In this document: positions 16,497 through 60,795 of the stretch, in pieces
Numbering within the stretch: position 1 is the stretch's first letter
Layout of the letters: each line of letters starts with the position of its first letter
Source of the DNA: Sphyrna mokarran
Lineage: Eukaryota
Direction of reading: 5' to 3'
Length of the DNA stretch: 64,000 nucleotides
Assembly (NCBI GenBank): GCA_024679065.1
Contig: JAGIQG010000030.1
Location: 9,548,001 to 9,612,000, forward strand
Notes under the pieces: model-generated
Database searches by the model: none
Told to the model about the DNA's origin: nothing
The model's input: the letters and a program-made list of their open reading frames with translations, nothing else
Translations under genes and position numbers: made by a program

Positions 16497-18947
16497 CAAA
16501 GAACAAAGAACAAAACAGCACGGGAAACAGGCCCTTTGGCCCAACGAGCCCGCGCCACCACCCCGATGTTCCCACCTCTACCTGTGATCCTTGTCTTTGT
16601 TTATAGATCTATGGATTGAAACCAAATTTGAGACAATTTAGGGAGAACTTATTCTGCCAATCAGCCTAACAGCACATCTTTGGGATGTGGGAGGAAACCG
16701 GAGCACCCGGAGAAAACCCACGCAAGCACAGGGAGAACGTGCAAACTCCCACAGACACAGGCCCAAATCCATGTATCTGCACAGCACAGCGATAGTCACT
16801 GAGCTGTCGTGCTGCCCATCAAATGGTCCAGGTCAAGCATACACTAACGACGTGAAGCACTAGGATACTCTCGAAAAATCCAAGAGCAGCCCTCTCACGA
16901 CCCATCGCGTGTATGCCCCTTGTTAGACAACAAGGTGGACCAAAGCACCTGTAGGATAAAAACAAGTATATCAATATCATCATCTATTTACACACTTCCC
17001 AGGGACTCCCAAGGCTCATGACCCCTATTTTAAATCAGTTTTCTATACCCCTCCATTCCCATTCTGTTCATGTGCCCATCTAAGTATCTCTTAAATAACT
17101 CCAGAGTGCCTGCCTCCACCACTTTACTTGGCAGCGCATTCCATACCCCCACCACCCTCTGTGTGAAAAAACTCCCTCTAGCATCCAAATTATACCTTAC
17201 CCCCCTCACCCTAAGCCCATGACCTCTCATGCTATTCGAGTCCATCCTAGGAAAAAGCTTAACCCTGTTTACTCTATCTATGCCCCCCATAATCTTGTAC
17301 ACCTCTCCTCTAAGTCTATGTCTTTCGAAGGAAAACGGCCTCAATTTGCCTAACCTCTCCTCGTAACTCAGACCTTCTATACCAGGCAACATCTTGGTAA
17401 ACCTCCTCTGCACTCTCTCCTGAGTCTCCACATTCTTCCAGTAGTAAAGCGACCAGAACTGGACGCAGTATTCCAAATGAGGTCTAACCAACATTTTATA
17501 CAACTGCAACATTAAAGGCCAGCTCTTGTACTCTATACCCCTTCCTATGAAGGCTAGCATACCATATGCTTTCTTCACAACATTCTCCACCTGCTCTGCC
17601 ACCTTCAGAGACTTGCGCGCCTGCACCCCCAGGTCCCTCTGTGTTTCTATACTCTTAATAGGTCTACCCTTTATCATATACCTCCCCCCTACATTCTTTC
17701 TCCCAAAATGCATCACCTCACATTTATCAGGGTTGAATTCCATCTGCCATCTATCTGCCCAAGCTACCAACCTATCTACGTCCTCCTGAATCGCCTGACA
17801 ATGCTCTTCACTATCCGCAAGTCCAGCCATCTTTGTATCGTCTGCAAACTTGCTGATCACTCCACTTACTCCCTCTTCCAAGTCATTTATATATATTACA
17901 AATAGAAGAGGTCCCGAGCCCTGCAGCACACCACTAGTGATCGACCTCCAGCTAGAAAAACACCCTTCCACTATTACTCTGTCTCCTATTACTAAGCCAG
18001 TTACTTACCCATCTAGCTACCTGTCCTTGTATTCCATTAGCCTTGACCTTCTTAACTAACCTCCCATGAGGGACTTTGTCAAACGCCTTACTGAAATCCA
18101 CATAGACGATATCAACGGCTCACCCTTCGCCCACCGTTTTCATCACCTCTACCAGATTCGTAAGGCACGACCTCCCCTTAACAAAGCCATGCTGTGTATC
18201 CCTAATCAGATCGCAAGTGCCTATACATCCTAAGAATCCCCTCCAACAGCTTCTCTACCACTGGCGTCAAACTCACCAGCCTATAATTTCCAGGGTTATC
18301 CCTACTACCCTTTTTAAACAACAGTACAACATTAGCTATTCTCCAGTCCTCTGCGACCTCACCTGTGTCCAAAGAAGAGACAAAGATTTGCCTCAGAGGC
18401 CCAGCAATTTCACCCCTCACCTCCCTAAGCAGCCTGGGATAAATGTCATCAGGCCCCGGAGATTTATCAGTTTTAATGCTACCTAGAAGCTCTCATACTT
18501 CCTCCCTCAGAATGGATATTTCCCTCAACTGGTTCACAGCTCCCTCAGAGACAGGAGCGGTCAACAAGCCCCTCTCCTTCGTGAGTACCGATGCAAAGTA
18601 TTCATTCAGGATCTCCCCCATTCCCTCAGGCTGTAAGCACAGTTCCCCTCCTCTGCCCCCAAGAGGTCCGATGTTTCCTCTAACCACCCTTTTATTCCTA
18701 ACATAGGAATAAAAAGCCTTTGGATTTTCCTTAATCCTATCCGCCAAAACCATTTCATGTCCCCTTTTTGCCCTTCTAAGTCCCCGTTTGAGCTCTCTCC
18801 TACTGTCTCTATATTCCTCCAACGCTGTCTCAATTCCCAGCTGCTTTGACCTATCATATGCCTCTCCTTTCTTCCTAAGGAAGTCCTCAAAATCAATAGT
18901 AATCCACGGCTCTCTAATTCTACCTTTCCCATCTTTCCTCCTTTTAC
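16497..18947 (-). mobile_element. Young 5'-truncated CR1 LINE with a composite 3'UTR (structured domain plus embedded V-SINE)
   Basis: ORF2 pieces IKENPKAFYSYVRNKR, GSRDNPGNYRLVSLT, ISKFADDTK, LEYCVQFWS; stop at 17030; V-SINE body at 16660-16820; (GTTCTTT)n tail. Confidence 0.92.
17030..17971 (-). pseudogene. C-terminal part of CR1 ORF2 (reverse transcriptase), 313 open codons
   Basis: SGVLQGS..PLLFVIYINDL, FADDTK, KMLVRPHLEYCVQFWS, FFTQRVVGVWNALP; upstream part frameshifted. Confidence 0.9.
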
Positions 18948-20999
18948 AGTAAAGCAACTGACCTGGAACTCTGCATTGTAAGATTATAAAATCTAGGATA
19001 AGCAAATCACTGAGAAAGTTGCAAGCAGACTGTTGTAACAGTCTCTGTACTTTAACAACATATGTGGCATAACACAGAACAGAAAATCTATTACACCAAG
19101 CCAAATTTGCTGTACTTCAACAATACTAATACACCAGTAACCCCAAATAATGCAAAACAGTTCAATGAATGTGCAATGTCTCACGTAAACTTTTATACAG
19201 ATTGAACATTTTTGCTTTCTTGAATATGCTCTAATGCTATAATGACAACAAGAATAGAACTACATGGAAAGTATTTAAAAGGAAAAACTGTAAGAAACAG
19301 TTTTATCACAAAACTTGATAAATGATAATTCAGGATGATAGCTTTAATGGGCTATGAAGTAAATTGATTTGTAGCTTTGACATATGGTAGTTCACAGATG
19401 AAAGATAGCCATTACGCTACAAGTTGCGAATGAATTAGTGTCAGAAAAAGAACACTTGGAATTTGACACTGGTGAGAAATAACTTGTACATTCCGTTGCC
19501 ATGTCCAATGTGGCAAAATTTTGAAAAGTTCAGCATTTCCAGCATAGCAGATATTCACAGATGTTGACTGCCTTTTGTAGCACTGATTATCACCAGTAAC
19601 CTCAAATATTAACAATGTCACACACACAAAAAAAATGTGGCCATCATCACATTCAGGAAGTTAAATAGAAAGAAAAAAAAGACTTCTCAATAGCCAAAGG
19701 TCAGCGCTAACTAGGACGCTGGACATGGTTTGATTGAGGAATAGGGAACATCACAGAATTCAAACATTGCTCATATCCTCAAAGTCAACAAACGCTGTTG
19801 AAAACTATATTTCCCTTTTTGTAACTGAAACTGAGAAACCAATCCCCTTGGCAGTTTCCATCCACAATTTCCCTCCCCAATTTTTTTGAATACCCACCCC
19901 CTACATTTGAGCTCCATGACTTGTAATGCCACTGAAAAATCAAACTAAAAAAACTTTATCCTATGGAAGTACAGTTTCACAGCATTGAATCCTCACTTGC
20001 ATTCCCCACTTTGCTGGTTGGGAATATTCATTCCCAACTTCCCGTTGCTTGGCCACTCACTGGAAGCTAATCTTCTAGACGTTGCTATAGGTATACCCTT
20101 TCCTTCCCTCAAAAAGTTCTATTTGCCATCTTCAAAAAACTGAGTTCGACTCCTTCTTTTGACTACTACTTTTCTGATCAGTATAAAGTATTGCCCATTG
20201 TTTCACACATCAATCGCTTTGCAAACACGTTGTTTTCAAAGTTGATCTACGCAGGCTGGAGAAAATAAATAGGAGTACATGTGAAAGAAGGATAAGAAAA
20301 AGTAGATGTAATACAGCCAATAACATTGGCAACTGTAACAAACAGGCAAAAGCCATTTCATTGCAAAGTTTTGAACACAACCTGAAATTACAAATGCGAT
20401 ACAGCAGTCCATACAAGCCATCTATTAAATTTAAATACTATTTCTTTCAAATGAGGGCATGTGGATATCAAGTTAGACTTGCATTTTAGTACACAGTCTA
20501 ATTCAAATTTCTGCTCAGCTCCATCTCTGATATCAAATTTGTAATATAACCGTTTAGTGCACGTGAAAAAGGAAACGGATACAGCCTGCAAAGCAAATTC
20601 ATTTCAGATTTACACAGTTCGATTGAAACTCAAGCGTAAACATCATCATCAGTGCTTCAAGTGACAGAATTCCCAATTCTACCTCCTTAAAATTCTTCAA
20701 CTGACAGGCAAAAGGAGAACTTGGGGAAAAACTTAGAGACGTATGTTAATGTTTTTAAAGTTCAAGTGCAAATTTTAATACTTGAATGTGGAATTATGGT
20801 TAAATTTCTGGTTATGAATAGAAAACAATTAGCTATCATGATGTCCTTAATTTCAGGGTGATTAAATTAGAAATCTGCAAACAGATTATAAAAGAAAATA
20901 CTTAATTGTTTTCCTTCGAGTTGTCTTCTGGTGATTTGTCTCTAATCACTTTGCAGTTATCATATCGTAGATATACTTTTGCCCATGCATTAAATCTAC

Positions 21000-22290
21000 A
21001 AAGGAAAGACTGGTCATTGGCGTCAATATAGAAAGTCATCCTATGGTATTTAATAAGAACATTGTAAAACAAAATTTAACACTGATCTACACAAAGAAAT
21101 ATTAAGACAGATGATCAATAGTTTGATCAAAGGTAGATTTTAAGGAGGATTTTAAAAGATAAATTAGAGGAAGAAAAGCAGAGACGTTTGGGAATTTAGG
21201 GTCTTGGCAACTGAAAGCACAACTTTCAATAGTGAGTCATTAAATAAATTTAATTCACAGGATTTGGACATACTATCCATCTCTAATTACCCTTGAGAAG
21301 ATGCTGAAAAACTGCCTTCAACTGCTGCTGTATAGTGAAGGCATTCCCATGTCACTGTTAGGCAGAATTCCAGGATTACATCCAGCATCGATAAAAGAAT
21401 GGCAGCATACTTTCAAGTGAGGACGATGGGTGACCAGGAGGTAGTGGGATTCTCATAGACCTACCTCATTTGTTCTTGTTCTTCTAAGTGTTAGAACTCA
21501 CAGGTTTGGGAGGTGTTATCAAGACGCCTTGGTAAATTGTTGCAGGTATCTTGTAGATGATATCCATGGAGTATCTGCAGTGCATGGATTGAATGTTTAA
21601 AGCACTGGTTGGGATGTCAGTCAAGCAAGCTGTTTTATGATGATGAATAGTGTCAAGCTTCACGTGCTATTGGAGATGGATTCATTAAACTAAGAAGCAC
21701 ATTTTCCATTATGTTTCTGACTTAGACCGCATTATTGACAAAGACACTTGGGAAATCAAGGGATGAGATTAAAAATTGGTATGTTCAAGAAGTCATAACT
21801 TAAGGACCACAGGTATCTCTGAGGTGGCAGTCTAGGTCTGCAAGAGATTGGAAACATTAGCAGATGCAAGAGGTGAGGGGGTAGTTCTGTGCTTGAATTG
21901 AAAACAAGATTGAAAATTCTGAAACAATGGTTTTGCTGAACCAGGAACAAATGTAGCTCAATGAATACAGGTAGGTAAATGGGATCTCAAATTAAGATGA
22001 CCTCGAGTTTACAAAAGGCAGACCCAGGAATGTGCTGGAATAGTTAAGCAGAGCTAACAAAGATGTGGGTTCCAGCAACAGGCGACCTGAGACACAGATT
22101 GTATTCAGCAATACTACAGAGGTAAAAATAGTCTTCGTGATTATGTCAAAACATAGTTGGAAGCCCAAAGATCAACAATTTGGTTTAGCCTCAGACAAAC
22201 CCCTGGGTGAGGCATGCGTTGATGGCTAGGAAACAGAGTTTATAACAGGTACTGCAAACAATGGCTTTAGCTTTCCTAATATCCTAAAAC
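21000..22290 (-). mobile_element. Old L2-like LINE 3' fragment, interrupted at ~21245-21755 by a LINE fragment of the 53757 family
   Basis: acagatgatcaatagtttgatcaaag...ttttaaggagg is homologous to 61890-61980; insert matches 55-300 (ccttgagaagatgctg...ttccaggatt..cagc). Confidence 0.55.
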
Positions 22291-22714
22291 AAATGCGCCT
22301 GCTCCCAAAAATTATTCATTACAGCATAAAAATTCTTTACAGTTATAAAATATAATGTGGCAGATTTGACTACTGATCCAGGTTTCTAAAACATGTTATG
22401 ATTTTACTGTTGCACCCAATATTTAGTACTTTTATGGTCGTTGCATAATTTAAGCTTTCATTTATATTATATAGTATTGACCTACTTTGCATTTAAATAG
22501 ATATTAGCATTAATGAATTTAACAGGTTTGTATTCCAGGTTAGCAACAGGCACATTGATAGATTAAATATTTATGAAGTAAAACTCTATTTCACCACAGT
22601 GTGATAAAAAAATTACCCAATTGTGTTATTGTTTGTACTTTCCAACCATCTGTATCATTTTGGAGTGGAGTTACCAGTTCAAGCTCAAAGCTACCAAAAC
22701 ATCAAGTCACATTA

Positions 22715-23130
22715 TTTTATTCTTTCTGGTTGTATCACTGCTTGGTGTGATTCCTGCTCTGCCCAAGACTGCAAAAATAAAACGAAGGCTCATGAACGAA
22801 GCCCAGTCCATCACACAAACCAGTTCCCATCCACTTTGTCTGCACTTTCCGCTGCCTTGGGAAAGCAGCCAGCATAATGAATGACCCCCATGCACTCTGG
22901 ACATACTCTCTTCCATCTTCTTCCATCATAAAAAAGATACAGAAGTCTGAGGTCAGGTACCAAAACAACTCAAGAACAACTTCTTCCCTTCTGCCATCAG
23001 ATTTTTGAATGCGTCTACCTTGCATAAAGTTGATCTTTCTCTATACCGTAGCTATGACTATAACACTACATTTTGCACTCTCGCCTTTCTTTCTCTATGA
23101 ATAGTATGCTTTGTCTGTAGAGCAATAATA
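22715..23130 (+). mobile_element. Rex1/Babar LINE 3' fragment
   Basis: ILSGCITAWCDSCSAQDCK, NEAQSITQT; 3'UTR caagaacaacttcttcccttctgccatcaga. Confidence 0.8.
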
Positions 23131-24941
23131 AATGTTAGGATATTTCAAGTATGGAAAACTTCCACTTCCTTCTTGGCAAATTGGAAAATAAACAATAGTT
23201 TATTCGGATTCAATTACACTGGCAATTGTAATGCTACTATGCACCATAGAATTTCATTTAAATGTCAGGTGTTCTTATAAATATGCAGAAGTCTTTCAAG
23301 GATATTCATCAGTATCTTGAACATTCATTGTTTATTTGATCATATTCAAGATATGCACCAGAAGAGTCAACGACATAACATTAACCACCAACATTACATT
23401 GAGAATCTTGTCAACAAAGCATCATTGAAAGTTATTGTAAGAGTAGAAGATATCAAGTATCTAAGATGACCATACCAATAAAACAAATATTTTTTGTTGA
23501 ATTAGTAATTAAAATATGGAATACATTATATATAGTCTATTTTGCATTATTTAACTGGGAATTAGGCATTTGAAGATTTTTTAAAGCACGTGCAAAACAA
23601 GGAAATAAACCAAATAGCTGTGTGAAAAATATTTTAAATAAATCAAATAATTGCAGAAGCAGTTAAACCCAAAAGATTAAATGCAAGAGGAGTCAAAGAT
23701 CATATTTTGAAAGTTTTAAATGATCAGTCTTCTTTGAATTGCCAATTAGTTTTGCTCTGTGGGCTCATGCTCACAGACCGAAGTTCTTTTTCCAGCACAG
23801 CAAATAGAAAATAACCAATCTAATTCAGATGGAATCTCAAATCTATCGCAGATTTGTTTTAAAATCATTCTTTACACTTTTAACCTTTTCAGTTGAAACA
23901 TGCAAAAGGAGGTTTAGGAACACAGTCTCTAAGCAGAGCTGGAAAAACTAAGTAATAACCTATGCTCACTTTGTACAGGCTCACACTATTCCTTGTCCCT
24001 TCCTGTAATCTCTTCAATACCAACCAAGCAGTTGCACCACTGCCAAGGAATTTCAACTACTACCAAAGTGCAGTCCTGCAAACATATCTAAACATAATAC
24101 TGATTCAACTAAGCACATTTAAAAAAACTTGTTTAATTCGTGAAATGTCATTATTTGAAAAGAAAAATATTTAATTGTACAGAGAAAATGTGTTTAAATG
24201 AAGAAGAAAAAACAAGATCTGGAGAAACATGATTGATTAAATGGTGAAAATTTTTTCTGGCATCAATTAAGCCATCATAAACGAATTCAGACACAAGTGG
24301 TTTCTGAAATTCAGCAATGTTTTAAAACATATTACATGTTCTCCATTCATTAACTGACAGTCTCGTCTAGCACAGCTGCTCACTTAAAATTGAATCCATA
24401 ATTCATGTGACTCTAAGTTGAATTTCAAATGCGACAAAGTATTTTGGCAAAACTATTCGCTTCCAACTCCACAGCATTCCGCTTACTTCTCTAAATCACC
24501 AACTTTGTGACCAGAAACCAGATTTCTCCCAAGCTGCTCTGACCAATTCCATCTTTACCCTATATACACCAATATATAAATTTCTACAACCTAAAAGGTT
24601 GAAATTCATTATTTCAGTCCTATTGATCACTGGCTGTTAGTGTTGTGTTTCAAATTCTTCCATGCCCAGCTGCAACTCTTCACAACTGACACAGTGAGGT
24701 CATCAATTCCACCACCATGTAGTAGTAGCTTGTGGTCATCATAACTTTGTACAATTATTTTCCTAATTCTCAACTTGTGACCTATTTTCAACCTTTTTTT
24801 GGTAGAAAGCTAAGAAAAACATATTTTACTGAGAACACCTTGAGCCACTTCTGTAAACTTCCTTTACTTTCTGTTGCTTGGTCTCCACCGTTCCCTCTTG
24901 TAAAATGCTTAGAAACATTTAATTCCATGAAAAACACCACA

Positions 24942-25652
24942 TAAGAACAAACAAAACAGCCAGGGAAACAGGCCCTTCGGCCCAACGAGCCTGCGCTGCC
25001 ACCCCAATGTTCCCACCTCTACCCGTGATCCCTGTCTATCTTTATAGATCTATGGATTAAAAACCAAATTTGAGACAATTTAGGGAGAATTTATTTTGCC
25101 AATTAGCCTAAGAGCACATCTTTGGGATGTGGGAGGAAACTGGAGCACCTGGAGAAAACCCACGCAAGCATGGAGAGAATGCGCAAACTCCCACAGACAC
25201 AGACCCAAATCCATGTATCTGCACAGCACAGCGATAGTCACTGAGCTGTCGTGTTGCCCATCAGATGGTCCAGGTCAAGCATACACTAACGACATGAAGC
25301 ACTAGGATACTCTCGAAAAAAATCCAAGAGCAGCCCTCTCATGACCCATTGCATGACCCATTCCCTTGTTAGACAACAAGGTGGACCAAAGCACCTGTAG
25401 GATAAAAACAAGTACATCAATATCATCTATTTACACTATTTTAAAATCAGTTTTCTATACCCCTCCGTTATCCATTCTGTTCATGTGCCCATCTAAGTAT
25501 TTCTTAAATTACTCCAGAGTGCCTGCCTCCACCACTTTACTTGGCAGCACATTCCATACCCCCACCACCCTCTGTGCGAAAAAACTCCCTCTAGCATTCA
25601 AATTATACCTTACCCCCTTCACCGTAAGCCTGTGACCCCTCATGCTATTTGA
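24942..25652 (-). mobile_element. Second, shorter copy of the composite CR1/V-SINE element
   Basis: Colinear and highly similar to 16497-17240: tail, V-SINE, structured domain and the last ~70 codons of ORF2. Confidence 0.92.
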
Positions 25653-33029: not shown

Positions 33030-33712
33030 TCATGGTGCCATTTACATCATAGAAAGCAACTCTTCTGGATGTATCAGAGGTTGGTAGGCTTCAGCTCTGC
33101 CCAAGACAGCAGAGAACTACAAAGAGTCTTGAACGAAGCCCAATCCATCACGTAAACCAGCCTCCTGTCCATGGACTCTGTCTATGCTTCCTGCTGCCTC
33201 AGAAAAGCAGCCGGCATAATTAAGCACCCCGGACGTTCTCTCTTCTGCTTTCTTCCGTTGAGAAAAAGATACAAAAGTCTGAGGTCATGTACCAAATGAC
33301 TCAAGAACAGGTTCTTCCCTTCTGCTGACAGACTTTTGAATTGACTTACCTTGCATTACGTTGATCTTTCTCTACACCTAGCTATGACAACAACACTACA
33401 TTCTGCATGTTCTTGTTTTCTTCCCTATAAATGGTATGCTTTGTCTGTATAGCACACAAGAAACTACTTTTCATTGTAAGTTAATACATGACAATAATAA
33501 ATCAAATCAACCAAGAGTTGCTTCTTCCTTACTGTCACCAGACTTTTGAATAGATCTAAATGGCATTGTGACCTTTCTCTATACCCTAATAATGATATAT
33601 CACTGCACTCTGCACCCTATCCTTGTCTTCTCCATGTATGGTATGTTTGTGTAGTGCACAAGAAACAATACTTTTCACTGTTTGTTAATACATGTGATAA
33701 TAAATCCAATTA
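33030..33712 (+). mobile_element. Rex1/Babar 3' fragments (two adjacent 3' ends)
   Basis: atagaaagcaactcttctggatgtatca...aacgaagcccaatccatcacg...caataataaatcaaatcaa, then a second 3'UTR at 33515-33710. Confidence 0.8.
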
Positions 33713-33789
33713 AGTCATTTGTTAAAGGGTAGTAATTTATTTCTGAGAAGGTCTGGCTTAGTAAGAAAATAGTACAGTAGTTGGAAATC

Positions 33790-34082
33790 ATAAAATGGCA
33801 TTCAAAAAGATGCCATTTTGCCCATCAAGCCTGCACTGACAATCCCACCCAGGCCCTATTCCCCGTAACGACATGTGTTTATCCTGCTAACTGTCCTGAT
33901 ACCAAGGGGCAATTTTGCAAAGCTGACCAACCTGTGGCAAGAAACTAGAACACTCAAGAGAAAACTAATGCAGAGACGGGGAGAAAGTACAAATTCCACA
34001 CGACAGTCACCCGAGGGCGGAATTGAATCTAGCTCCTTGGTGCTGTAAGGCAGCAGTGCTAACTACTGTGCCACCATGCCAC
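33790..34082 (-). mobile_element. HE1-like V-SINE with CR1 tail
   Basis: Minus-strand head ggcatggtggcacagtagttagcactgctgccttacagc; V-domain gtgtggaatttgtactttctccccgtctctgc. Confidence 0.8.
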
Positions 34083-34094
34083 ATCTTGGATTTT

Positions 34095-34440
34095 GACCAA
34101 AGGTGTGCAGGTTAAGTGTATCGGCTATGCTAAATTGTCCCTTAGCATCCCAAGATGCATAGGTAAGGTGGATTGAGAATACTGAATTGTTCCTTAGCGT
34201 CCCAAGACGTATAGGTTAGAGGGATTAATGGTTATAGGGCCCGGGTGGGATAATCTGTCAAAGAGTTAGTACAGAGTGGATGGGCTGCACAGTAGGGATT
34301 CTATGATTATTGTTACATGTATTGGAACGCAATGAAATGTATTGTTTTTTGCATGCTGTGCAGATAAAGCATACCATTCATAGAGTATATGGTGAGAAGG
34401 AAAGAAGAGGGCGCAGAATATAGCGTTACAGTTACTGAGA
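34095..34440. mobile_element. V-SINE 3' half (+, 34095-34310, with an internal duplication) abutting a Rex1 tail (-, 34305-34440)
   Basis: ccaaaggtgtgcaggttaag...aaattgtcccttagcatcccaaga repeated; gggattctatgatt tail. Confidence 0.7.
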
Positions 34441-40229: not shown

Positions 40230-41921
40230 GGCCCTGATTTTACCAACACGGCTCGCAGAACAATAATGAAGGACAACTCAGACTGGTTGAAGCACAGGAT
40301 GCCATTTGGGCCTTCATGTGTACGCTGGCTCTCCAAAGTAGCAAACAGAAGTTTAGCATAAGGGATGACATTCAGTAAATCACAGTGAAATTCGGTAAAT
40401 CTTAGTGAAATATCTGGTTCGCTGTATACAAAACCCTGAGCCAGTATCAGATCATCCAAGAATAATTTTGCACCATTCCCCACAAATATGCTGTGCATTA
40501 ACAGGAGAGAAGTGTGTTTCTTCAGAAGGAACTCTTCAGATGTGGACAATAAAAATATAACAAAACGTACACCAACTTATAAATCAAAGAAAGAGTTTAA
40601 TAAAGAAACTTCATTACTCCAAACTTGGGGTTTTGCCCCAGACCAATCCAAGCTCCCCACAATTCCCAACAGGTTCTTATTTATAGTTTGTCAGCTGACC
40701 GTCACATCATTCTGTAATTGTTTCCATGGTTACTGGGTCAGCTGACTCATAGCTTCTTACCATTGGTCACATTACATCTGATACAAAGCTGTCACCCAAA
40801 TTTGTAACTGACTTTGTAAGCAAATATCAACATGATTTCTGGTTGGGAAACAGGCAGATTTGCATCTTTGGCATACAAACACTTGGATTTGTTTTGTATC
40901 AAACTATAACAAAGAATAGCACATTGACCATGTTGGTTCGAGATCTCCACCACCTCATAGTAACTATAAATGGGTAATAAATACTGTCCTTGCCAGACAT
41001 GCTCACAGCTGAGAATGAATTAAAAATATAATGGATTGCTTTGAAGTACAGCCATTGTTACATAGGCAAAAGCAGCAGCTGCTTTGCAGTCAGCAAAGTT
41101 CCCATAAATAACATTGAGATGACATTCCAGTACACCACAAAGAGAGTACAGCACATTTTAATATGCATTTTTTGGATGAAGTGTTAAACTGGAGGTTCAC
41201 TTACTCTATCAAATGGATGTGAAAGATCATGTGACATTATTCAAAGAGCAGGGGAATTGTCAACTTCACTAGAACAGATTAAGAAAAAGTAAAAGATTTG
41301 TATTTATATAGCATTTTATATGCCCACTGGACATTTGAAAGTACAGCCAAAGAAGTAATTTTCAGTGCAGAAATGTTGAGATAAACGATCAGTTGATTTG
41401 TTTTTGCTGGTGTTGGTTGAGAAAGACATGCTATGTTGCATTATGAAAGAAGATTCTACTTTTACAACTATAAAGTGGAATCTTTATTGACCATCCAAAT
41501 CAGTGGAATAAACATGTCTTGGTTTAAAACCTCATCTCTATTGAGCTAAAGTAACAGGCCTGAAAAAAATTACTTCTATCTTGAAGACCACCCAAAATAA
41601 TTGGAAGCTCCACTTTCCCAATTGTAGTTTTAGTTAGATTGGTTCAGCAATGAGACTTTTGCCTCCGAATCAAAATTCTGTGGGTCCAAGCACCAGTTTG
41701 GTAATTAAACATGCAATCTGGTCTGTCCTTTCTGCAGTAAAGACAGAGATGTAGACCTGGAATCCTTTGACTTTGCTTGCAATTGTCATTCTCCATCCTG
41801 CTGCAATGAATGGAACTTTGGCTGAGCACCAAGTTCTCCATTTTCACTGCCAATATTGAAGCAGCAAGACTAACGAATCCTGGTTGCAATCTTTTAGAAA
41901 AGGCTGATTGGGTGGAAATTT

Positions 41922-42195
41922 AAAGTTTATTTATTAGTGTCATAAGTAGGCTTACATTAACACTGCAATGAAACTAATGTGCAAATCTCCTAGCTGCCAC
42001 ACTCTAGTGCCTATTTGGGTGCAATGAAGGAGAATTTAGCATGGCCAATGCATCTAACCAGTACATGTTTCAGACTGTGAGAGTAAACCTGAGCACCCAG
42101 AGGAAACCCACGCAGAGAGTGACCCAAGCCAGGAATTAAACCCAGGCCCTTGGTACTGTGAGGCAGCAATGCTAACCGCTGTGCTCACCATGCCA
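41922..42195 (-). mobile_element. V-SINE with an alternative (non-CR1) tail
   Basis: tRNA-like head and V-domain; tail cattgcagtgttaatgtaagcctacttatgacactaataaataaacttt. Confidence 0.85.
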
Positions 42196-42634
42196 CACTA
42201 GTGGAAGTAAAGATTCCATCAGCACTCTTCAAAGAACAGATTATTATCCTCCTCAACATTTTTGCCTCAATAAAGAGCAGATTAACTGATTTCCCCATCT
42301 AATCTGCTCTTCATGGATGATTGATTTTTTTTCCTTTGCATAACAACCTTAATTGCACTTTGAAAAGCATTTCAAAGTTTGGTTAGGTGCTTTGAGGTGT
42401 TCTATAAAAATAGAAGTTATTTATTTTTCTTTGATAATTTGAGTGCAATATTACCAGCAATGTGAAAAAAGAAGATTAATTTTATGTGGAATCCTTCATA
42501 ACTCCAGGACATCGCAAATCACCTGAAAATCAACAAAGTACTGTTGAACCGGGTTCGCTATTATAATGGAGGAAAACCAGCAGCCAACGTGCCCATGGTA
42601 AAATCCCACAAATAGCAATGCTAATAAAGACATG

Positions 42635-43564: not shown

Positions 43565-43940
43565 GATTTGATTTGATTTATTATTGTCACATGTATTAAT
43601 ACACAGTGAAAAGTATTGTTTGTTGTGCGCTATACAGACAAAACATACTGATCATAGAGAAAGAAAGGAGAGAGTGCAGATGTATTGTTACAGTCATAGC
43701 TAAGACGTAGAGAAAGATCAGCTTAAAGGTAAGTCAATTCAAAAGTCCAACAGCAGCAGGGAAGAAGCTGTTCTTGAGTCAGTTGGTACGTGACCTCAGA
43801 TTTTTGTATCTTTTTTGCTGAAGGAAGAAGGTGGAAGAGAGAACATCCAGAGTGCGTGGGGTCCTTTAGTTATGCTGGATGTTTTACCGAGGCAGCAGGA
43901 AGCGTAGACAGAGTCATGGATCAGAGGCTGACTTGTGAAG
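43565..43940 (-). mobile_element. Rex1/Babar 3' end
   Basis: gatttgatttgatttattattgtcacatg...gggaagaagctgttcttgag. Confidence 0.85.
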
Positions 43941-44002
43941 AGGTACAATTACAGATGTGATTCAACTACTTTGTCTGAAGGGCCATTCTTCTAGTGAAGT
44001 TT

Positions 44003-44291
44003 TAAAGTTTATTTATTGTTGTCACAAGTAGGCTTCTATTAAGACTCCAATGAAGTTATTATGAAAATCCTCTAGTCTGCACACTCCGACACCTATTCGG
44101 GTACACTGAGGAAGAATTTAGTATGGAATGCACCTCTCCAGCATGTCTTTCAGGCTGTGGGAGAAACCAGAGAAACTGGAGAAAACCCACACAGACACAG
44201 GGAGAACTTTCAGTCTTCACACAGATAGTGACCCAAGCTGAGAATTGAACGTGTGTGCAGTGAGACAGCATTGCTAACCACTTGCCACCCA
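44003..44291 (-). mobile_element. V-SINE, alternative tail
   Basis: Same architecture as 41922-42195. Confidence 0.85.
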
Positions 44292-45179
44292 ATAATTAGC
44301 AACAGTAGCTATCTAGGAGTAATGGAACAAAATAATAGTTGTATTTAACAGTAGATGGTATCTTAACTAATCCTGTCATCGTCCAGCCTCCAGAAACATT
44401 TTCCAGAAATGGTCACTGGTTAACATCAGGGAAAAAGGCTGTACTTGATTTTTGTTTCAATTGTACCACATAGTTGCTGAAATGAATTATATCATCCCAG
44501 TACTGAAAAATTCAGTTAACTCAGCACATAGTAGGATGGAATCTTAAACCTTCCAGGTCTGTCTGGCTCAGTACCACACTAGAACGTGCATTTATCATTA
44601 TGTTACAAAGGGAATTAGTTTATATTTATCAAAACAATTGTAGATTTGAAACCTCCTTGCAATAAATAGAGGTGATGTGTCATTCAAAGAGTATATTCAA
44701 GTTACATTTTATGTGAACTGAATATTAACTTTTAAAATTACACAACACACAAAGCAACATACGCACATGAATATCCAGTTTGGCAGCCTTTTAAACTATT
44801 GCTTTTGGTGCCAACATTTTGTAAAAGCCTTAATTGTCTAATGTTTGCTGCAACATCCAATTGTTGAAGATTAATGCCATTATTTCAAAAGAATGAAAAT
44901 GTTGACCGCTGTTTACTGTCACTTCATAACAAGCAACAAGACAGACTGATTCCGGAACTTATCAACTGCTATTTGGCCACATAATGCAGTTAAGAAAAAT
45001 GTGTTGAACTGCTTGAATAGGCTGGCCATAATGGTAAATCCACATGTTTAATTTATGGTGCACATGACAGGCCTAGTTTGGCAATCTCCCAATGAACTGA
45101 ATCTGAATAATTCACTTCCTGCATTATTTGGTAGTTTGCATTTCACAAAACTACAGACTCCTGATTCGTATTTGAGTGT

Positions 45180-45472
45180 AGGGTGGCACAATGATTATCA
45201 TTGATGCCTCACAGTGCCAGGGACTCTATTTTGATTCCAGGCTTGGGTCACTGTCTGGGAGAATTTGCACATTTACCCCATGTCAGTGTGAGCTTCCTCG
45301 GGGTGCTCTGGTTTCCTTGCACAGTCCAAAGATGTGCAGGTTAGGTGGATTGCTAAATTGCCCTAGGATAAATGCGTGGGGTTATGGAACAAGGACCTGG
45401 GTGGGATTGTGGTCGATGCAGACGCAATGGGCCAAATGACCTCCTTCTGTGCTGTAGGATTCTATGATTCTC
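45180..45472 (+). mobile_element. HE1-like V-SINE with CR1 tail
   Basis: gggtggcacaatg..gcctcacagtgccagggac..ttcctcggggtgctctggtttccttgcacagtccaaagatgtgcagg..ctgtaggattctatgattc. Confidence 0.88.
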
Positions 45473-46189
45473 ATTATTTCCAACAGAAGATTTGTGGTTG
45501 ACATACTGGGGACCGTAAAATTCATTGGGCATTGATGAAGAAGCTCAGGTGAGAATGAAAGCCTCAAACCTCTGCTGGGTTAGAGTTGATGCAAGAAGAA
45601 GCATCATGTTTTTGTGGTGAAGAAGTATGAGCATTTCAAGGGATTATCATAAGCAAGTAGCCCCAACATGGAACAAGATGTGAACTTTTAAGCTGAGATC
45701 TGTGTTGAATGATAGTGTTGCCATTCTTTGGTTTCAGTATGAACATGTGGCTTGGAGGAAAACCAAATTTGTATCTGAGGCATAAAATATCTGCAAGGAG
45801 CTGAACAGAATGGTTGCATCCTTGATAATGGCTTTACATTTAAAACGTTCAGTTTATACAGAAATTACTGAAAATCTGTACTCAGTGGAGCAAGATTACC
45901 TGGGGATGATGGATGGCCATGCACTCGAAGAACAATTTTCAGGGAAAGACGTAACATTCACAGCAAGCCTTATTTTCTGCCTTGTGCTTGTTACATATGG
46001 CTACACACCAGTTGGGACTGATTCCAACCAGCAACGTTTCTGCTATGTTGGATAGTGCTATCAATTGATAAGGACAAGGTCCATAATGTTGAAGAAGCCT
46101 GATGTAACTGTATGTAAACAGTTGCACAAACCAAAAATAATGGAGGTGATTGTCCCAAAAACATTTTAAGTACTGAATTTGCATGAACG

Positions 46190-47105: not shown

Positions 47106-48647
47106 CCCCACTGCCACACTAGAGAGGGTCTACAATACTGAGGCTGCGTTGATGACAAGGGCACGAGGCATCTCTCAATACCAAGACTTAGAAGAAGAAT
47201 TTTGGTCCCAGTGAAAACAGTTTCAAAGAAAGCTGAAAAGCTTGTAGATTGTAGCACGAAAGGAAAGCTGACACAGGCCCTAAGTTTCAATTTTGAAGTC
47301 CTGTGAAACAATGGTTTATATAAAAATGAGTCTTGAATTCCACACAGTGAGTATCTAGAGAGTAAGAAGCTTCATGTTTAGATTAGAGCGCATGAGCAAA
47401 TGCTCCTAGGAGCAATTACCATAAAAAAGCATTGAGAAAATATAAAAAGGCTGCAAATAGAAGCTGAGGGATAGCAGTATACAACATACTCAACAGACAA
47501 CAAATCTTGTGCTGTTTGCCAAGCTGAAAAGGTCACCCATTTTGTTGAATAAATGGAGGAGAAACAGAATGGTTATTGATACCTATGCTCACTTTTGAGC
47601 ACTGAACATTGACAATTATTTTATAGAAAAGGCACCACATTTTCTTCCATTGCCTGAAGTTACAGCATCATTGAAACCTGTCATGTATAATCAATTGCTG
47701 AGATTTTAATGAGGCTCAATGTTAACCTTTGCACTGCAGAAACACCTGCCTCAGGTGATAAGGGTGACAAAGATTCAAAGGAACTACTGCTTCCTGCTTA
47801 TGTTCCACTCGCCTCTTCACTGCGTGAGGTAGCCCACAACAGGAAAGTATGTATTTATTTCAATAAAGCTGATGAACATGGCTGTTCAGGACTGTGCACC
47901 TGCAACTCAGCTTAATCCATTTTTCTTGTACATACTGTGCTGCAGAAGCTTGCTGCTTTCAATGTTTACACCAGCCTTGTTGAATATGTATGCATATGTC
48001 ACTTGGGAGGAAACTGCCATTTGCAGTAATAAAAATTAAAGAAGGCTGAGGGACTTTTTTTAGACAACAGTGTCTGTTTATTACTTTATTGTTCACTTTT
48101 GAGTGATTATTATTATCCCAGGGTTTTTACCCCTCTCAATTTCAGCATCTTTTCCGGCTCTACAATGCTCTTTCCTTGCACATTCTGGCTTCCTGTGCAG
48201 CCCTGATTTCATCATTCCATCTTGGAGTTATGTCTTCAGCTGTCCCAAAGCTCAAGAATTCCTTCTGTAAAACCTTCCATCCCTCTATCTCTCTGAAGCT
48301 ATTCCTTAAAAACCAATTTGATTGTGATTTTGGTCACCTGTCCTAATATCCCATATGGTGCAGCATAAAATTTAATTTTTATAACTTTCCTATGAAGTGC
48401 ATTGAGACCATTTATTAAATGCATTACACAAATGCAAGATGTTGCTACTACCAGAATAAAGACCAAATTAGTGCAGCAGACTGGGAGATTTCAGTGGGGC
48501 TGGATTAACGAGATCTGTGCTGGGCACCTGGCCCCTAGCTATAATCCTAGGGCCAAATTTCTGGCACTGTCAGCTCTACGCTGGAAATAGGAGATATATT
48601 AGGTATGCAATTGCCTCTCCCTCACTATAGTTTCATTACACCATTTA

Positions 48648-48925
48648 GAGTTTATTTATTTATTCGTGTCACAAGTAGGTTTACATTAATACTACAATGA
48701 AGCTACTGTGAAAATCCCCAAGTCACCACCTGTCGAGTACACTGAGGGAGAATTTGGCATGGCCAATGCATCAAACCAGTATGCCTTTTGGACTGTGGAA
48801 GGAGCATGTGGAAGAAACCTACGTAGACACAGGCAGAACGTGCAGATTCCATGTTGATGACGCAAGCCAGAAATCGAACCTGGGTCCCCAGAACTGTGAG
48901 GCAGCAGTGCTAACCACTTGCCACT
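48648..48925 (-). mobile_element. V-SINE, alternative tail
   Basis: Same architecture as 41922-42195. Confidence 0.85.
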
Positions 48926-49209
48926 ATTTGGATTCATTTTTAAATTTTATTTTGCAATGGAAGAATCATCAGAAAGATAGGTTGATAGGGTTAAATGAAG
49001 AAGTTTAGGAGGAGGCTCTTATTAGGAGAATAAATGCTAGCATCTATCTGCCAGCTAGGAAATGGTCCAAAGTTCGATTCCAAAAAGCCAATTGATGAAG
49101 TATACTCAAACTACATTAATTCACTAAGAGTAACACAGTCGGCTTTGGTAAGTGTCTCTTTACAACAATTTCATAAACACCATTAGGCCACATGGTTGTT
49201 GCTCCTCTT

Positions 49210-55689: not shown

Positions 55690-56160
55690 ACAGAATCATA
55701 GAATCCCTACAGTACAGAAGAACATAGAATATAGAACATCACAGCGCAGTATGGGCCCTTCAGCCCCCGATCCTGCGCCGACCAGGAGAATGAATTTAAT
55801 AACCCTTTAACCTAAACTATTCCAATACTAGCCATATGCCTATCCACTGACCATTTGACCATTTTAAAGTTGGCAAAGAAAGCTATTGAGCCTGCACCAA
55901 CTACAATCCCACCTAGGCCCTTTCCCTGTAACCCCACATATTTATTCTGCTAATCCCCCTGACACTTTGAGCCAATTCAGCACGACCAATCAATCTAACC
56001 CATACATGTTTGGGTTGGGAAAGGAAACCAGAGCACCTGGAGGAAATCCATGCAAATACTGGGAGAACGTGCAAACTCCACACAGACAGTCACCCTAGGT
56101 CAGAATCAGAACTGAATTCCTGGAGCAGTGAGGCAGCAGTGTTAACCACTGTGCCACCCT
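55690..56160 (-). mobile_element. V-SINE with a CR1 tail fragment (55725-55875) nested in its tail
   Basis: atcatagaatccctacagtacagaag interrupted by aacatagaatatagaac..gggcccttcagccc; V-domain and head at 56010-56160. Confidence 0.8.
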
Positions 56161-57497
56161 GCCTCCTGTTGCTGAGTATACTTGAACTATGGTGAATTTC
56201 AGATTTTAGGAAGCACTGATGGAACTCGATGTGCTAATTCTCATAATGTACATCATAGTAGCGTCCAACAATCACAAAGTGTGAATTTGTTGGGTTCATA
56301 GCGCTAATATTTAAATAGGAACAACAGTCTGACACCAAAAATGTTCACGTTTAGACCAAGGCTCACTATAATAAAAATATATAATTTACACAAATGTTAG
56401 GTGCAATTTTGTTCCTGTCTGTGCCTGCTACTTATAGCTGTGTCTAAGATGGCATTTTGCAAACACTCATCTCAAATAACTTAGCTGACTGCTGCACAGA
56501 TTTGGAAGATTACAGATCCCTGGTTTCAGCTGGGTGATTTTATTCAAGGCTTCAGTTGAGGGACTCAACATGATGAGGGAGGGGACAAATCATTTAAGGT
56601 TTCTTTTCAGGAGTGTTGATTTTTTGAAGGCGAGATTTTTCTTGTCTGATTGTTTTACCAAATCACGTACTATCTTTAGACAAGGTGAGGGTTGGGAGGG
56701 TTTGGGTGGGGTATGCAAACAGCTCTCAAATTTTCAACAAAGCTGCTCTGAATCTGCCCACTGGGAAAATAGAGGAGCAGCAATCCACACACATCTCCTG
56801 CAGTGTTATTTATAACATTTAGTGATTATTGAAGATTTGACCACCTGCGCTCTCCCTTCCTGGAGGTTGATACAGGAGCATTATTTTGAATAAGAGCAGT
56901 AGCATAGCGTTTCGAAATGTTCGAATATTTTCTTAATTCAGTTCCTCTTTTCTGAAGATGACAGTTCTTGCTGGGTAACGGTCACATACATTTCCTGATT
57001 GTATAGCAAATAAGGAATTGGAATGATGTCTCATTCCTCCATCCCCTAAGGCCATCAAGCATTCCCAATTGCTTCTTGAATAAAATAATCTAACTCAGCA
57101 TAGACAAGGGATTGAGCCTGTGATCTTTCAACGGTCTGCATTTCTGCTACTGAATGTTTTAATCAACTGAACTATTGGGATGAAGGTTTTAGCAAAATGT
57201 CATCTTAAATGCAGGGCTAAAAATCTACTATGTTTGTTCCAGCTGGAACCACAGGAACAGAATTACACTTCACATCTGTTTAGCATTGCATACTTTATTA
57301 TAACAAGAGTTGCAGCTGAATCTCAACATTTCTGGTGTCTAACTACTGATCCTGATTTAAATGTTAGTGCTGAATCCAACACATTAACATTTTGTGAGTC
57401 GCTAATAACAGATAGAGGAACTAGCATGAGTCACATATAAAATTGTTTCCATCTATTTTGTAGATTAGTGGTGACAATGAAAGCAAATACTGTCTCT

Positions 57498-58015
57498 AAG
57501 TTTATTTATTAGTGTCACAAGTAGGTTTACGTTAACAGTGCAATGAAGTTACTGTGAAAATCCCCCAGTTGCCACACTCTGGCCCCTGTTTGGGTACACT
57601 GAGGAAGAATTTAGCATGGCCAATGCACCTAACCAGCATGTCTTTCAGATTGTGGAATTCCCTTCTTCAGAGAGTAACAGAGGCTGGTCATTGAATACAT
57701 TCATAGAATCTATACAATGCAGAAGGAGGCCATGTGGTCCATCAAGTCTGCACTGACAACAATCACACCCAGGCCCTATTGCCCTGCCAGTATATATTTA
57801 CCCTGCTAGTCCTCCTGACACTAAGGGGCAATTTAGCCTGGCCTATCAACCTAACCTACATATCTTTGGAATGCAGGAGGGAACCGGAGCACCCGAGGAA
57901 ACCCACGCAGACACACGGAGAACATGCAGAATCTGCACAAACAGTAGCCCAAGCCGAGAGTTGAACCCAGGTCCCTGTGGCTGTGAGGGAGCAATGCTAA
58001 CCAATGTGCCACCCT
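57498..58015 (-). mobile_element. Alternative-tail V-SINE 3' half (57498-57655) and a CR1-tail V-SINE (57700-58015)
   Basis: aagtttatttattagtgtcacaagtagg tail; second copy gaaccggagcacccgaggaaacccacgcagacac. Confidence 0.85.
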
Positions 58016-59029
58016 AATATACTTAATGTGACATAATTATTTGGGACACACAATAAAAATGCTAGCCTATGCAGCAACGCCAATGCCTTGTGAAAGAATA
58101 AAACCAAATGATCCTGATTACACATTTTCACATTTACTACAGGACTTTTGATGGTGAGATGCTGTGTGTTTTTAGTGAGTTCGGAGTCTGCTTTCTCCTT
58201 GCGACCTGACTTCCCAACAGAATTTTCAAAATATAAGTTTGTACCTGCAAAGCTTTCATTTGTCTTCTATTAGCTCTTTAGAATGTACTTCAACAGATAT
58301 GCCATTGGTAACACAAGAAGTTGGCAGGCAATTCTCCTTCACCAGCAGTATTTTGGCTTGAAATTGCAGCTATGCTACAGTAAAGTGAATTGACTCTCAT
58401 TTTGATTTTCATCCTTCCTTTTGATGGAAGCATCTTATCTCCGCTGTACACTCTCTCCCAATGGCTTCACTTAAATTAGAAATGCTACACGACCTTGAAA
58501 TTACACTGCATGATATTAGTACATGAATACTTAATACATTCATATGTAATTGCTTCTCCGTTTTAATGGAGGAAATAATTTGTTAATTTTGAATGGTTTA
58601 ATACCTCAGTTTAAACAGCAGAAAGAGAAGTTTCATACAGATGCATTAGGTGTACATTGCAGATTGTAATTTCAAGGCCCTTATTGTGAATGGAAAGCAT
58701 GACCAATTTCGTCATTCAGTGGCACACTATTTTGATTTATCAAAAAGGGACAGATTTGTTGGTCTAATGTTTTCGCTTTTCAAGAAATCCTAATGTTCTT
58801 TTGAATTAGATAAATCTATATCCCAGGTCATTTAGGTGCTGCTCTTGACTCTTCAAAGTAAGGGAGTTATACAAGAGTGCCTTAGGCCAGATATGCTACT
58901 TTTTTTACTTTGATTAATTCAGTAGGTGCATTATGTGGAGCTACAAAGGTCACAAATAAGTTTGAATCAATATCCCCATCCATTTCCATGCTTCTCAAAT
59001 TATGCATAGCAATAGGGTTTGGTTTCTGG

Positions 59030-59779: not shown

Positions 59780-60795
59780 GAGATGAGATGGAAGTGATCA
59801 AGAGCTTCAAATTTCTCGGTGGTCAGACCTGTCCTGATCCCTCCACGCCAGTGCAATAATTAAAAAAGCCCACCATCAGTTCTAATTTCTCAGGAAATTA
59901 AGGAAATTCAGCTTGTCCATTATGACACACAATATTTACAAATGCCCCATAGAAAGCATCCTTTCCAGATGTATCACAGCTTTCTATGGCTTCCACTCTG
60001 ATCAAGACCACAAGAAACTACTGAACATTGCCCAGTCCTGCATGCAAACAAGACTACCATCCATTGACTGCTTCTACACATCCTGATGCTTCAGGAAAAC
60101 AACCAGCATAATCAAGGACTCTATGCACCCCGAACATACTCTCTTCCGTCTTCTTCCATCAGGAGAAAGATATAAAAATCTGAGATCATGTACCAACTAA
60201 CTCAAGAACAGCTTCTTACATGCTCCATCAAACTTTTGAATGGACCTACCTTATATTAAGTTGATGTTTCTCTACGCCCTAGCTATGACTGTAACACTAT
60301 ATTCTGTACCCTCCCCTTTCCTTCTCCCTATGTACTCTATGAATAGTATGCTTTAATGATTTTGGCGGGGGAGAAGCTATGCTTTTTGCTGTATCCCAAT
60401 ACATATGATAATAATAACATAAGAATAAGGAATAGGTCATCTGGCACCTACTGAATTAATCAAAGTAAAAAAACCTGCTCCGTCATTCAATAAGATCATA
60501 GTTGATCTTTTTGTGAACTCAGCTCCACTTACCCGCCCGCTCATCATAACCCTTAATTCCTTTACTATTTGAAAATGTATCTATCCTTGCCTTAAAAATT
60601 CAATTGCCTCAACTGCTTCACTGGGTAGGGAATTCCACAGGTTCGCAACCCTTTGGGTGAAGAAGTTTCTCCTCAACTCAGTTTTTATTTTGAAGCCATG
60701 TCCCCTAGTTCTAGTTTCACCAGCCAGTGGAAACAACCTCCCTGCTTCTATTAATAATAATTATGACAATTTGATAATAAATCAAATCAAATCAA
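59780..60795 (+). mobile_element. Rex1/Babar 3' fragment with a minus-strand CR1 tail (60416-60750) inserted in its end
   Basis: IKSFKFLG, IESILSRCITAFYG; Rex tail ataataaatcaaatcaaatc resumes at ~60775. Confidence 0.8.

Follow-up and report, generated by a model that had tools for sequence, protein, structure and literature searches.

HER1, a CR1-type LINE, and HE1, a V-SINE, both found in sharks and rays, were reportedly described by Ogiwara in 1999 and 2002. The two are tabulated as a pair (PMC3747384), and the V domain carried by HE1 in sharks and rays is given as about 80 bp long (PMC4824008), in agreement with the domain seen here. As far as this description goes, the pair resembles the system analysed here in having a CR1-clade LINE, a SINE in which a tRNA head is combined with a conserved central domain, and a CR1-type stem-loop tail, in a shark-like genome. 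It is set apart by the same description, since in HER1/HE1 only the tail is shared and has passed from LINE to SINE, whereas here the head and the central domain of a SINE lie inside the 3′ UTR of a LINE.

In the accounts given by published surveys, such domains are absent from LINEs, and in one of them no sequence similar to the conserved SINE bodies had been found (PMC5786205). The same source describes two LINEs, Ingi-3_AC and R4-1_ADi, in which a UTR contains SINE-body-like Ceph/RTE-like sequence, and proposes LINE-SINE recombination; however, that segment is RTE-derived and lies in the 5′ UTR, and a tRNA head, a V domain or a test for selection does not form part of that description (PMC5786205). 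A captured piece of V-SINE is also known from MER6/MER6A, a mammalian Tc1/Mariner MITE, where it was spread by the replication burst of its carrier. As described, MER6, now extinct, is a non-autonomous DNA element that moves without an RNA step (PMC6887750). The present carrier is an autonomous retrotransposon, and its own silent sites provide a yardstick for conservation between master lineages. Canonical vertebrate CR1 elements share with our element an esterase ORF1, an APE and RT ORF2, and tandem subunits near the 5′ UTR; the main text of a 2026 survey of them, which has the words "SINE" and "UTR" once each, does not appear to include a composite 3′ UTR in its description (PMC13343379).

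The DNA analysed here is from Sphyrna mokarran (GCA_024679065.1, contig JAGIQG010000030.1, positions 9,548,001-9,612,000 of the forward strand), and the whole of this stretch of 64,000 nt is called the window. A sequence-only reading of it had proposed that two minus-strand copies share the order ORF2 stop, UTR, eroded head, V domain and CR1-type tail, and this is borne out by their alignment, which has 749 columns and 87.6% identity (16499-17239 in copy A against 24943-25652 in copy B). Copy A had been placed at 16497-18947; its 3′ end stands, but homology with other copies begins at 18940. It starts with a 5′-truncated and frameshifted CR1 ORF2 (17030-18940, minus strand), which covers the RT, with a match to RVT_1, and the C-terminus, and has its stop codon at 17032-17030. 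This is followed by spacer 1 (16949-17029), which ends in a pyrimidine tract and CAG resembling a 3′ splice site, a predicted folded RNA block consisting of a closing stem, a short hairpin and a long irregular hairpin, and a tRNA-derived SINE head (16761-16817), identified by comparison with free SINEs, which begins 213 nt from the ORF2 stop. Then come the V-type central domain (16671-16760; 88-91% identity to the free SINEs of this genome), a further 35 nt or so of SINE-derived sequence leading into a variable spacer 2 (16560-16670), and a CR1-type tail stem-loop with a (TTCTTTG)n end (16497-16559), the nearest match to which is a short-UTR relative family. The acceptor-like site (16950-16949) and the folded block (16941-16825) of copy A are features additional to those of the sequence-only reading.

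Copy B, also on the minus strand, has the same parts in the same order: the final 210 nt of a 5′-truncated ORF2 (25441-25652), spacer 1 and the folded block (25260-25440, with the acceptor-like AG at 25396-25395), the eroded head and V-type domain (25113-25259), and spacer 2 with the CR1-type tail (24942-25112). A private 30-nt deletion past the stop codon reduces its stop-to-head distance to about 180 nt. The flanks of the two copies were held to be unrelated, and indeed a BLAST search of the 1-kb flanks of copy A against those of copy B found no match on either side. No target-site duplications are evident at the two copies, and ARAGORN found no tRNA in the window. The UTRs of the other CR1s in the window, whose ends lie near 38026 and 62340, are short, as had been claimed.

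The composite is abundant in this genome. A 19-mer from the captured head has 33,749 exact matches, against none for the control, and sampling gives an estimate of about 48,000 copies. A search with the junction of ORF2, UTR and head returned 1654 candidates, and all 40 of those scored span the junction at 97-100%. All 29 of the other loci compared have this 3′ end in common and are unrelated in the sequence 3′ of it, so that there are many copies with independent flanks, and the 5′ ends of family copies are staggered, in line with the differing truncation points noticed in the window. A shared 3′ end with staggered 5′ ends is what would be expected of target-primed reverse transcription beginning at the tail. 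When loci were picked by upstream ORF2 alone, 16 of 20 continue into the cassette and none of the 20 has a short UTR. The composite clade comprises at least three master lineages, two of them young, with copies 1-3% from their consensus (2.6% in lineage A and 1.1% in lineage B). These observations support the conclusion that the composite is the unit of retrotransposition, that it has been mobile recently, and that a master LINE took up SINE sequence. The V-type domain is copied as part of this unit, and the composite LINE thereby spreads it, as the sequence-only reading had suggested. That reading had also called the master LINE active; for current activity, we note that a full ORF2 frame is present in only 1 of 123 scored copies, and ORF1 of that copy is split.

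Full-length members, of about 4.6 kb, carry tandem 5′ monomers and encode an esterase in ORF1 and an endonuclease-RT in ORF2; in the majority consensus both frames are open, over 350 and 998 codons. Exo_endo_phos_2 and RVT_1 exceed the Pfam cut-off in one copy (L312). Matches to Lipase_GDSL_2 (34.5 bits, cut-off 32.9) and OSK (38, cut-off 27) identify ORF1 as being of the esterase type. Other traits of CR1 are present, namely a stem-loop tail, a short tandem repeat, variable 5′ truncation and no poly(A), except that the 3′ UTR is not short, being 424-612 nt as compared to 67-80 nt in the CR1 relatives in this genome. Judged by its predicted coding capacity and these traits, the carrier is an autonomous CR1-clade LINE with a variant 3′ UTR.

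The SINE-derived part is incomplete. Its head matches the tRNA head of the free SINEs in this genome at 34-36 of 56-57 nt (60-63%), which is significant against 2000 dinucleotide shuffles (p = 0.0005-0.0015), and the Pol III B box is deleted, so that the head is indeed tRNA-like, eroded and lacking a clear B box. The central domain matches at 77-80 of 88 nt, and the SINE-derived stretch ends about 35 nt 3′ of it. For the SINE parts of this genome we have assumed the labels V, HE1-type and L2-type tail. It had been suggested that the captured head could seed new SINEs, but of 30 copies taken in order of position over the initial 1.06 Mb of a single contig (two share a flank), none starts at the eroded head. 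On sequence comparison, the captured part is a SINE remnant and not a SINE.

Comparison of lineages A, B and C provides clues as to the possible function of the captured parts. At fourfold ORF2 sites the lineages differ at between 25/95 and 31/92 positions (26-34%), whereas the head differs at 2-3 of 58-59 positions and the V domain at 4-8 of 89 (3-9% for the two), and the tail at 1 of 56. The spacers between these conserved parts differ at 12-32% of aligned sites and have long indels; in spacer 2, lineages A and B differ at 11 of 34 sites and have a further 46 unaligned nt. The contrast between head plus V and the fourfold ORF2 sites (Fisher p from 1e-8 to 5e-5) indicates that head and V are under purifying selection, probably evolving about five-fold more slowly than silent sites. 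Since selection among master elements favours the element and not the host, this is an argument for a benefit of the domain to the mobile RNA, or to the expression of that RNA.

For the block of about 125 nt, a common fold is predicted from five lineage consensuses. It folds better than shuffled sequence, with z-scores from −2.6 to −5.9 (−5.9 in copy A, where none of 200 shuffles was as good, and −3.4 in copy B). Variable columns are fewer among paired than among unpaired positions (18/92 against 16/33, p = 0.003), for a structure predicted from the same five consensuses; 7 of the 16 variable pairs are unable to pair in one or more of the lineages, and a two-sided change is found in only one or two. 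The V-type domain and the head fold no better than shuffles (z from −1.8 to +0.2), which lends no support to a role for these two at the RNA level. Rfam covariance models found nothing near the gathering score in the UTRs of lineages A and B, at E up to 10, for ribozymes, miRNA, SECIS or IRES. An HDV-like ribozyme in the block, read by eye, lacks the required pairings and has no Rfam support, and was rejected.

Our preferred explanation, which we consider probable, is that this is an autonomous CR1 clade whose 3′ UTR holds a SINE head, a SINE central domain and a folded block upstream of what is likely its own tail, the pieces being likely selected as a cis-acting RNA element. A single capture in a master element, by insertion or by a template switch between the stop codon and the tail, would have supplied the cassette. 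With the B box lost, the SINE part would be transcribed only within the Pol II RNA of the LINE, and ORF2p, in the manner of the short-UTR relatives, would recognise the CR1 stem-loop tail. The head, the V-type domain and the block may fold, or may bind a host or element protein, giving better RNA survival or better RNP/RT loading in cis. The same advantage in cis would account for the conservation of the domain in free SINEs.

An explanation compatible with this one, although we think it unlikely, is that the cassette acts at the level of DNA or of splicing, being a captured host exon, made up of a 3′ splice site, an exon and an old SINE, that serves the element as a terminal exon, an enhancer or an antisense promoter. 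Spacer 1 varies in length between lineages (24-166 nt), but has a pyrimidine tract and CAG at its end in all of them; judged by a crude test, these are present in 113 of 124 copies. By a crude scoring of AG sites, the acceptor-like AG ranks among the top, and is joint first of 492 in lineage A. In copy L052 a GT site in ORF2 is joined exactly to the acceptor-like AG; against this, there are 6 nt of microhomology at the junction, and the 40 copies scored include no other that has it. Nor was an abundant spliced non-autonomous derivative found: of the matches to two splice-junction patterns, the second of which is limited to junctions having a purine at each of two set positions, 30 of 232 and 30 of 64 were inspected, and almost every one is either a point mutant or simply truncated at its 5′ end. 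The erosion of the head (about 38% from free SINEs) is far above that of the V domain (about 10%), as though the captured copy had been shaped elsewhere beforehand.

The sequence-only reading had the element using the LINE-derived tail of the SINE for RT recognition, which would follow if a whole V-SINE, tail included, became the 3′ end of the LINE by read-through or by a template switch onto SINE RNA. The head, domain and tail do stand in SINE order, the shark HE1 SINE and HER1 LINE have a common tail as tabulated (PMC3747384), and, towards the 5′ side of the tail, a bulge of 5 nt is nearer to the free SINE than to the short-UTR relative. However, the last 43 nt of the tail match the nearest short-UTR CR1 relative at 40-41/43, and the free SINE at only 31-32/39-41; the terminal repeat unit is also that of the short-UTR CR1 family and not of the free-SINE tail, and the stem-loop is the same as in the short-UTR relative, with the outer stem compensated. 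This family is also the nearest ORF2 relative. In addition, nothing before the head is clearly a remnant of a LINE tail that had been displaced. Free SINEs sharing the central domain carry two different tails: among 232 V-domain matches not classed as composite, 83 have one tail, 54 another and 91 are unclassified, and the 4 with the composite tail are all truncated composite copies. Capture of a whole V-SINE, which is largely refuted for extant SINEs, is in our judgement quite improbable, although an extinct SINE with a tail borrowed from the same CR1 clade would look identical. As the tail of the composite is nearer to that of the short-UTR CR1 than to the tail of either type of free SINE, the SINE is internal to the UTR, and the LINE has likely retained an RT recognition signal of its own. 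In trees taking in the families of this genome only, the composite lineages are monophyletic with respect to the short-UTR relative, at 98/99 with 330-nt consensuses but only 71/96 with 600-nt single copies, a level at which the short-UTR relative may instead descend from composite elements by loss of the cassette.

It is very improbable that the cassette is a neutral passenger which seems conserved because co-active lineages, through recombination or template switching, have homogenised the 3′ end. Activity of lineages A and B was simultaneous, to judge from the divergences above, and chimeric and inverted copies are common among the loci, but conserved segments alternate with divergent ones, and a swap of 3′ ends would have erased the difference in spacer 2. 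Conversion from free SINEs is also unlikely, since the composite V domains share substitutions missing from free SINEs, and several independent deletions in spacer 1 all retain the acceptor-like site. Local duplication of a one-off nested insertion is ruled out by the head-motif matches, the junction-spanning loci and the unrelated flanks.

Returning to the cis-acting element that we prefer, a stronger version, which we offer as a tentative possibility, is that the LINE has domesticated the core of its parasite. The V domain would be a portable cis-acting RNA element aiding retrotransposition and, with the new 125-nt fold and the conserved splice acceptor, would form an exon-like regulatory module. 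If true, functional parts, which usually pass from LINE to SINE, would here have gone the other way. Within an autonomous LINE, the silent sites of the element itself serve as a reference for the constraint on the V domain, and a standard cis retrotransposition assay allows the domain to be deleted; if this stronger version is true, this would give the first direct assay of why SINE central domains remain conserved across animals. The short-UTR CR1 families in this genome are likewise young and abundant, so that CR1 elements in general can succeed without the cassette. It is worth adding that, with tens of thousands of composite copies, annotation of each as a LINE plus a separate SINE would inflate V-SINE counts in shark genomes.

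Both of the composite CR1 copies described by the sequence-only reading are found in the window (16497-18940 and 24942-25652, both minus strand). They are 87.6% identical over 749 aligned columns, with no alignment between their 1-kb flanks. In the longer copy, read on the minus strand, the frame listing places the end of ORF2 at 17032-17030. The SINE-like head follows from 16817, then comes the central domain (about 16760-16671), and a (TTCTTTG)n repeat closes the tail at 16497. Searching the 2.77-Gb assembly, whose repeats suggest a shark-like genome, for the ORF2-UTR-head junction yielded 1654 first-look candidates; 40 of these were scored, and every one matches 359 or more of the 361 nt at 97-100%. 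A further 29 loci outside the window have a single common 3' end, unrelated 3' flanks and 5' starts at many points. The composite is a dispersed family, and not a local duplication limited to two copies. A 19-mer of the captured head has 33,749 exact matches in the assembly (control 0), and a sample of eighty stretches, each 10 kb long and set at round coordinates, with 8 adjoining the window, held 14 copies, corresponding to about 48,500 (Poisson 26,500-81,400).

To avoid UTR-based selection, 20 of 39 loci matched by an upstream part of ORF2 were sampled. Sixteen continue into the cassette (the UTR module of acceptor-like site, folded block, eroded SINE head and V-type central domain), one gets as far as the start of the UTR before the stretch ends, three are broken off earlier, and none of the 20 has a short UTR. 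Ordinary short UTRs, as previously noted, do characterize the other CR1 families encountered in the retrieved sequences, the 3' UTR being 67-80 nt in three such families versus 424-612 nt in the composite master lineages A, B and C. Among loci chosen on ORF1, the cassette lies within the stretch in 13/20. Full-length members are about 4.6 kb, and in a full-length majority consensus the two frames run to 350 and 998 codons and include GDSL-esterase, endonuclease and RT domains; the composite is an autonomous CR1. An active master LINE, as proposed, is indicated for the recent past, and activity may or may not continue today: one of 123 scored copies retains a 991-codon ORF2 frame together with the cassette, though with a split ORF1. 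At the 5' ends of three full-length copies (L304, L306, L317) the 5' UTR is a tandem array whose monomers measure about 150 bp and have a TATA-like motif plus a long stretch of pyrimidines closing with AG; PMC13343379 mentions tandem subunits for ORF1-less elements, whereas here they occur on an ORF1-bearing one.

Copies lie 2.6% from the consensus in lineage A (the window type) and 1.1% in lineage B (2741 candidates), both values coming from best-hit samples and thus biased young. Lineage C is older (about 15% between copies; 6846 candidates), and intermediates exist. All lineages share one order: spacer 1, pyrimidine tract and CAG, 133-nt block, head, V-type domain, spacer 2, tail.

Free tRNA-headed SINEs sharing the central domain are common in the assembly, with two tail types (83 and 54 copies classed) that we take to be HE1-type and L2-type. 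The captured head matches the first type at 34-36 of 56-57 nt (p 0.0005-0.0015), with the B box deleted, and the central domain at 77-80 of 88 nt; similarity fades about 35 nt beyond. The suggestion that the composite seeds new SINEs found no sign in 30 position-ordered copies, none of which begins at the head: even the shortest copy retains 53 nt upstream of it, and 25 extend to ORF2.

Fourfold sites over the last 300 ORF2 codons, used as the yardstick, differ among the three lineages at 30/92, 25/95 and 31/92. The head differs at 3/58, 2/58 and 3/59, and the V domain at 4/89, 8/89 and 7/89 (together against fourfold sites, p 1e-8, 5e-5 and 1e-7); the block differs at 27/133, 16/133 and 17/134 (p 0.04, 0.008 and 0.0002), and the tail at 1/56. 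The block of the window copies folds with z of -5.9 and -3.4, 0/200 shuffles being as good for each, and one predicted structure is common to the consensuses of five lineages (z -2.6 to -5.9). Its columns vary at 18/92 paired versus 16/33 unpaired positions, and 9/16 variable pairs remain paired in all five. Compared with shuffles, head and V-type domain showed no unusual folding, and the block has no match in Rfam.

Taking the composite structure, copy number, autonomy, LINE-type tail and constraint as established, we propose that a master element acquired the module in a single capture event between its stop codon and its tail, that Pol III function was lost afterwards, and that the module was retained through a cis benefit to the element. 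This benefit would most likely act at the RNA level, given the folded block and a domain known from mobile RNAs. The main alternative is that the cassette acts at the DNA level or in splicing. The acceptor-like site is retained across spacer lengths of 24 to 166 nt, and 113/124 copies pass a crude acceptor test, six of the remainder being alignment offsets. At one locus (L052:5470-5590) an ORF2 GT site is joined exactly to the acceptor-like AG, with 6 nt of microhomology, as either a splice product or a microhomology deletion may have left it. No second such junction was found among 40 scored copies, and in the matches examined (30 of 232 and 30 of 64) pattern searches for other junctions to this AG turned up largely point mutants and truncations; the conserved AG is a candidate 3' splice site only.

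That the LINE uses a borrowed SINE tail now appears unlikely. In the last 43 nt the composite tail matches family S, an old short-UTR family and the nearest ORF2 relative without the cassette, at 40-41 sites, versus 31-32 of 39-41 for the free SINE. The S tail has an identical terminal repeat and the same stem-loop, its outer stem compensated. A small tail bulge is nearer the free SINE than S, a state also found in other CR1 families. S joins the three lineages at 98/99 in both consensus and single-copy trees, and they group apart from it at 98/99 (consensuses) and 71/96 (single copies). S may be a sister family that was always without the cassette, or one from which the cassette was lost; either way the tail is that of the composite's own CR1 clade, which argues against borrowing unless it had earlier passed from this clade to a SINE now extinct. 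The sequence-only reading was partly right: the feature and its composite architecture are real, and the borrowed-tail mechanism is unlikely. Simple exchange of 3' ends does not account for the conservation, since between the conserved segments lie spacers differing at 12-32% of aligned sites, plus long indels.

The composite-UTR element is probably an undescribed form of CR1: the literature searched, with the original shark SINE papers, Repbase, Dfam and most subscription papers outside its scope, showed no V domain reported from the 3' UTR of a LINE. The nearest precedent for a V domain captured by another element is MER6 (PMC6887750); the papers covered also include PMC5786205, PMC3747384, PMC4824008, PMC5499810, PMC5804259, PMC11481361 and PMC13343379.

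Among sequencing runs of other organisms, those of organisms A, B and C contain half or more of the sampled words. When reads were aligned to the end of ORF2, the spacer, the block and the head's first half, runs of organisms B and C gave deep coverage in every bin, the lineage-A-specific spacer among them. Organism G has block and head at low depth, with lineage B/C-type letters and without the lineage A spacer, possibly as low-level contamination; organism K gave 0 reads from 6% of its run. This pattern, from short contigs, fits an older cassette shared among organisms.

Inverted or tandem neighbours and 5' inversions are frequent in the family (L002, L005, L009, L016, L055, L149), and two copies 13 kb apart on one contig share a 5' flank as a local duplication (L265, L266). 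At L162, L258, L269 and L299 the composite starts right after the microsatellite that ends a copy of another CR1 family, which suggests that composites insert into CR1 tails or arise there by template jumping. Free SINEs with common head and central domain and two unrelated tails, one CR1-like, lie in the window at 57480-58030, 43990-44320, 41900-42200, 48630-48940, 55870-56180, 45170-45480 and 33790-34100, on the strand opposite to that listed. The second tail is presumably L2-like, and would be noteworthy if the shark lineage is without intact L2. The window also holds a dispersed repeat of 300-400 bp (22724-23124, 33048-33713, 43565-43930, 59948-60355; 72-79% identity) and older repeat pairs (11595-12055/50145-50604, 41120-41365/42999-43248, 7189-7491/60472-60752; 66-81%).
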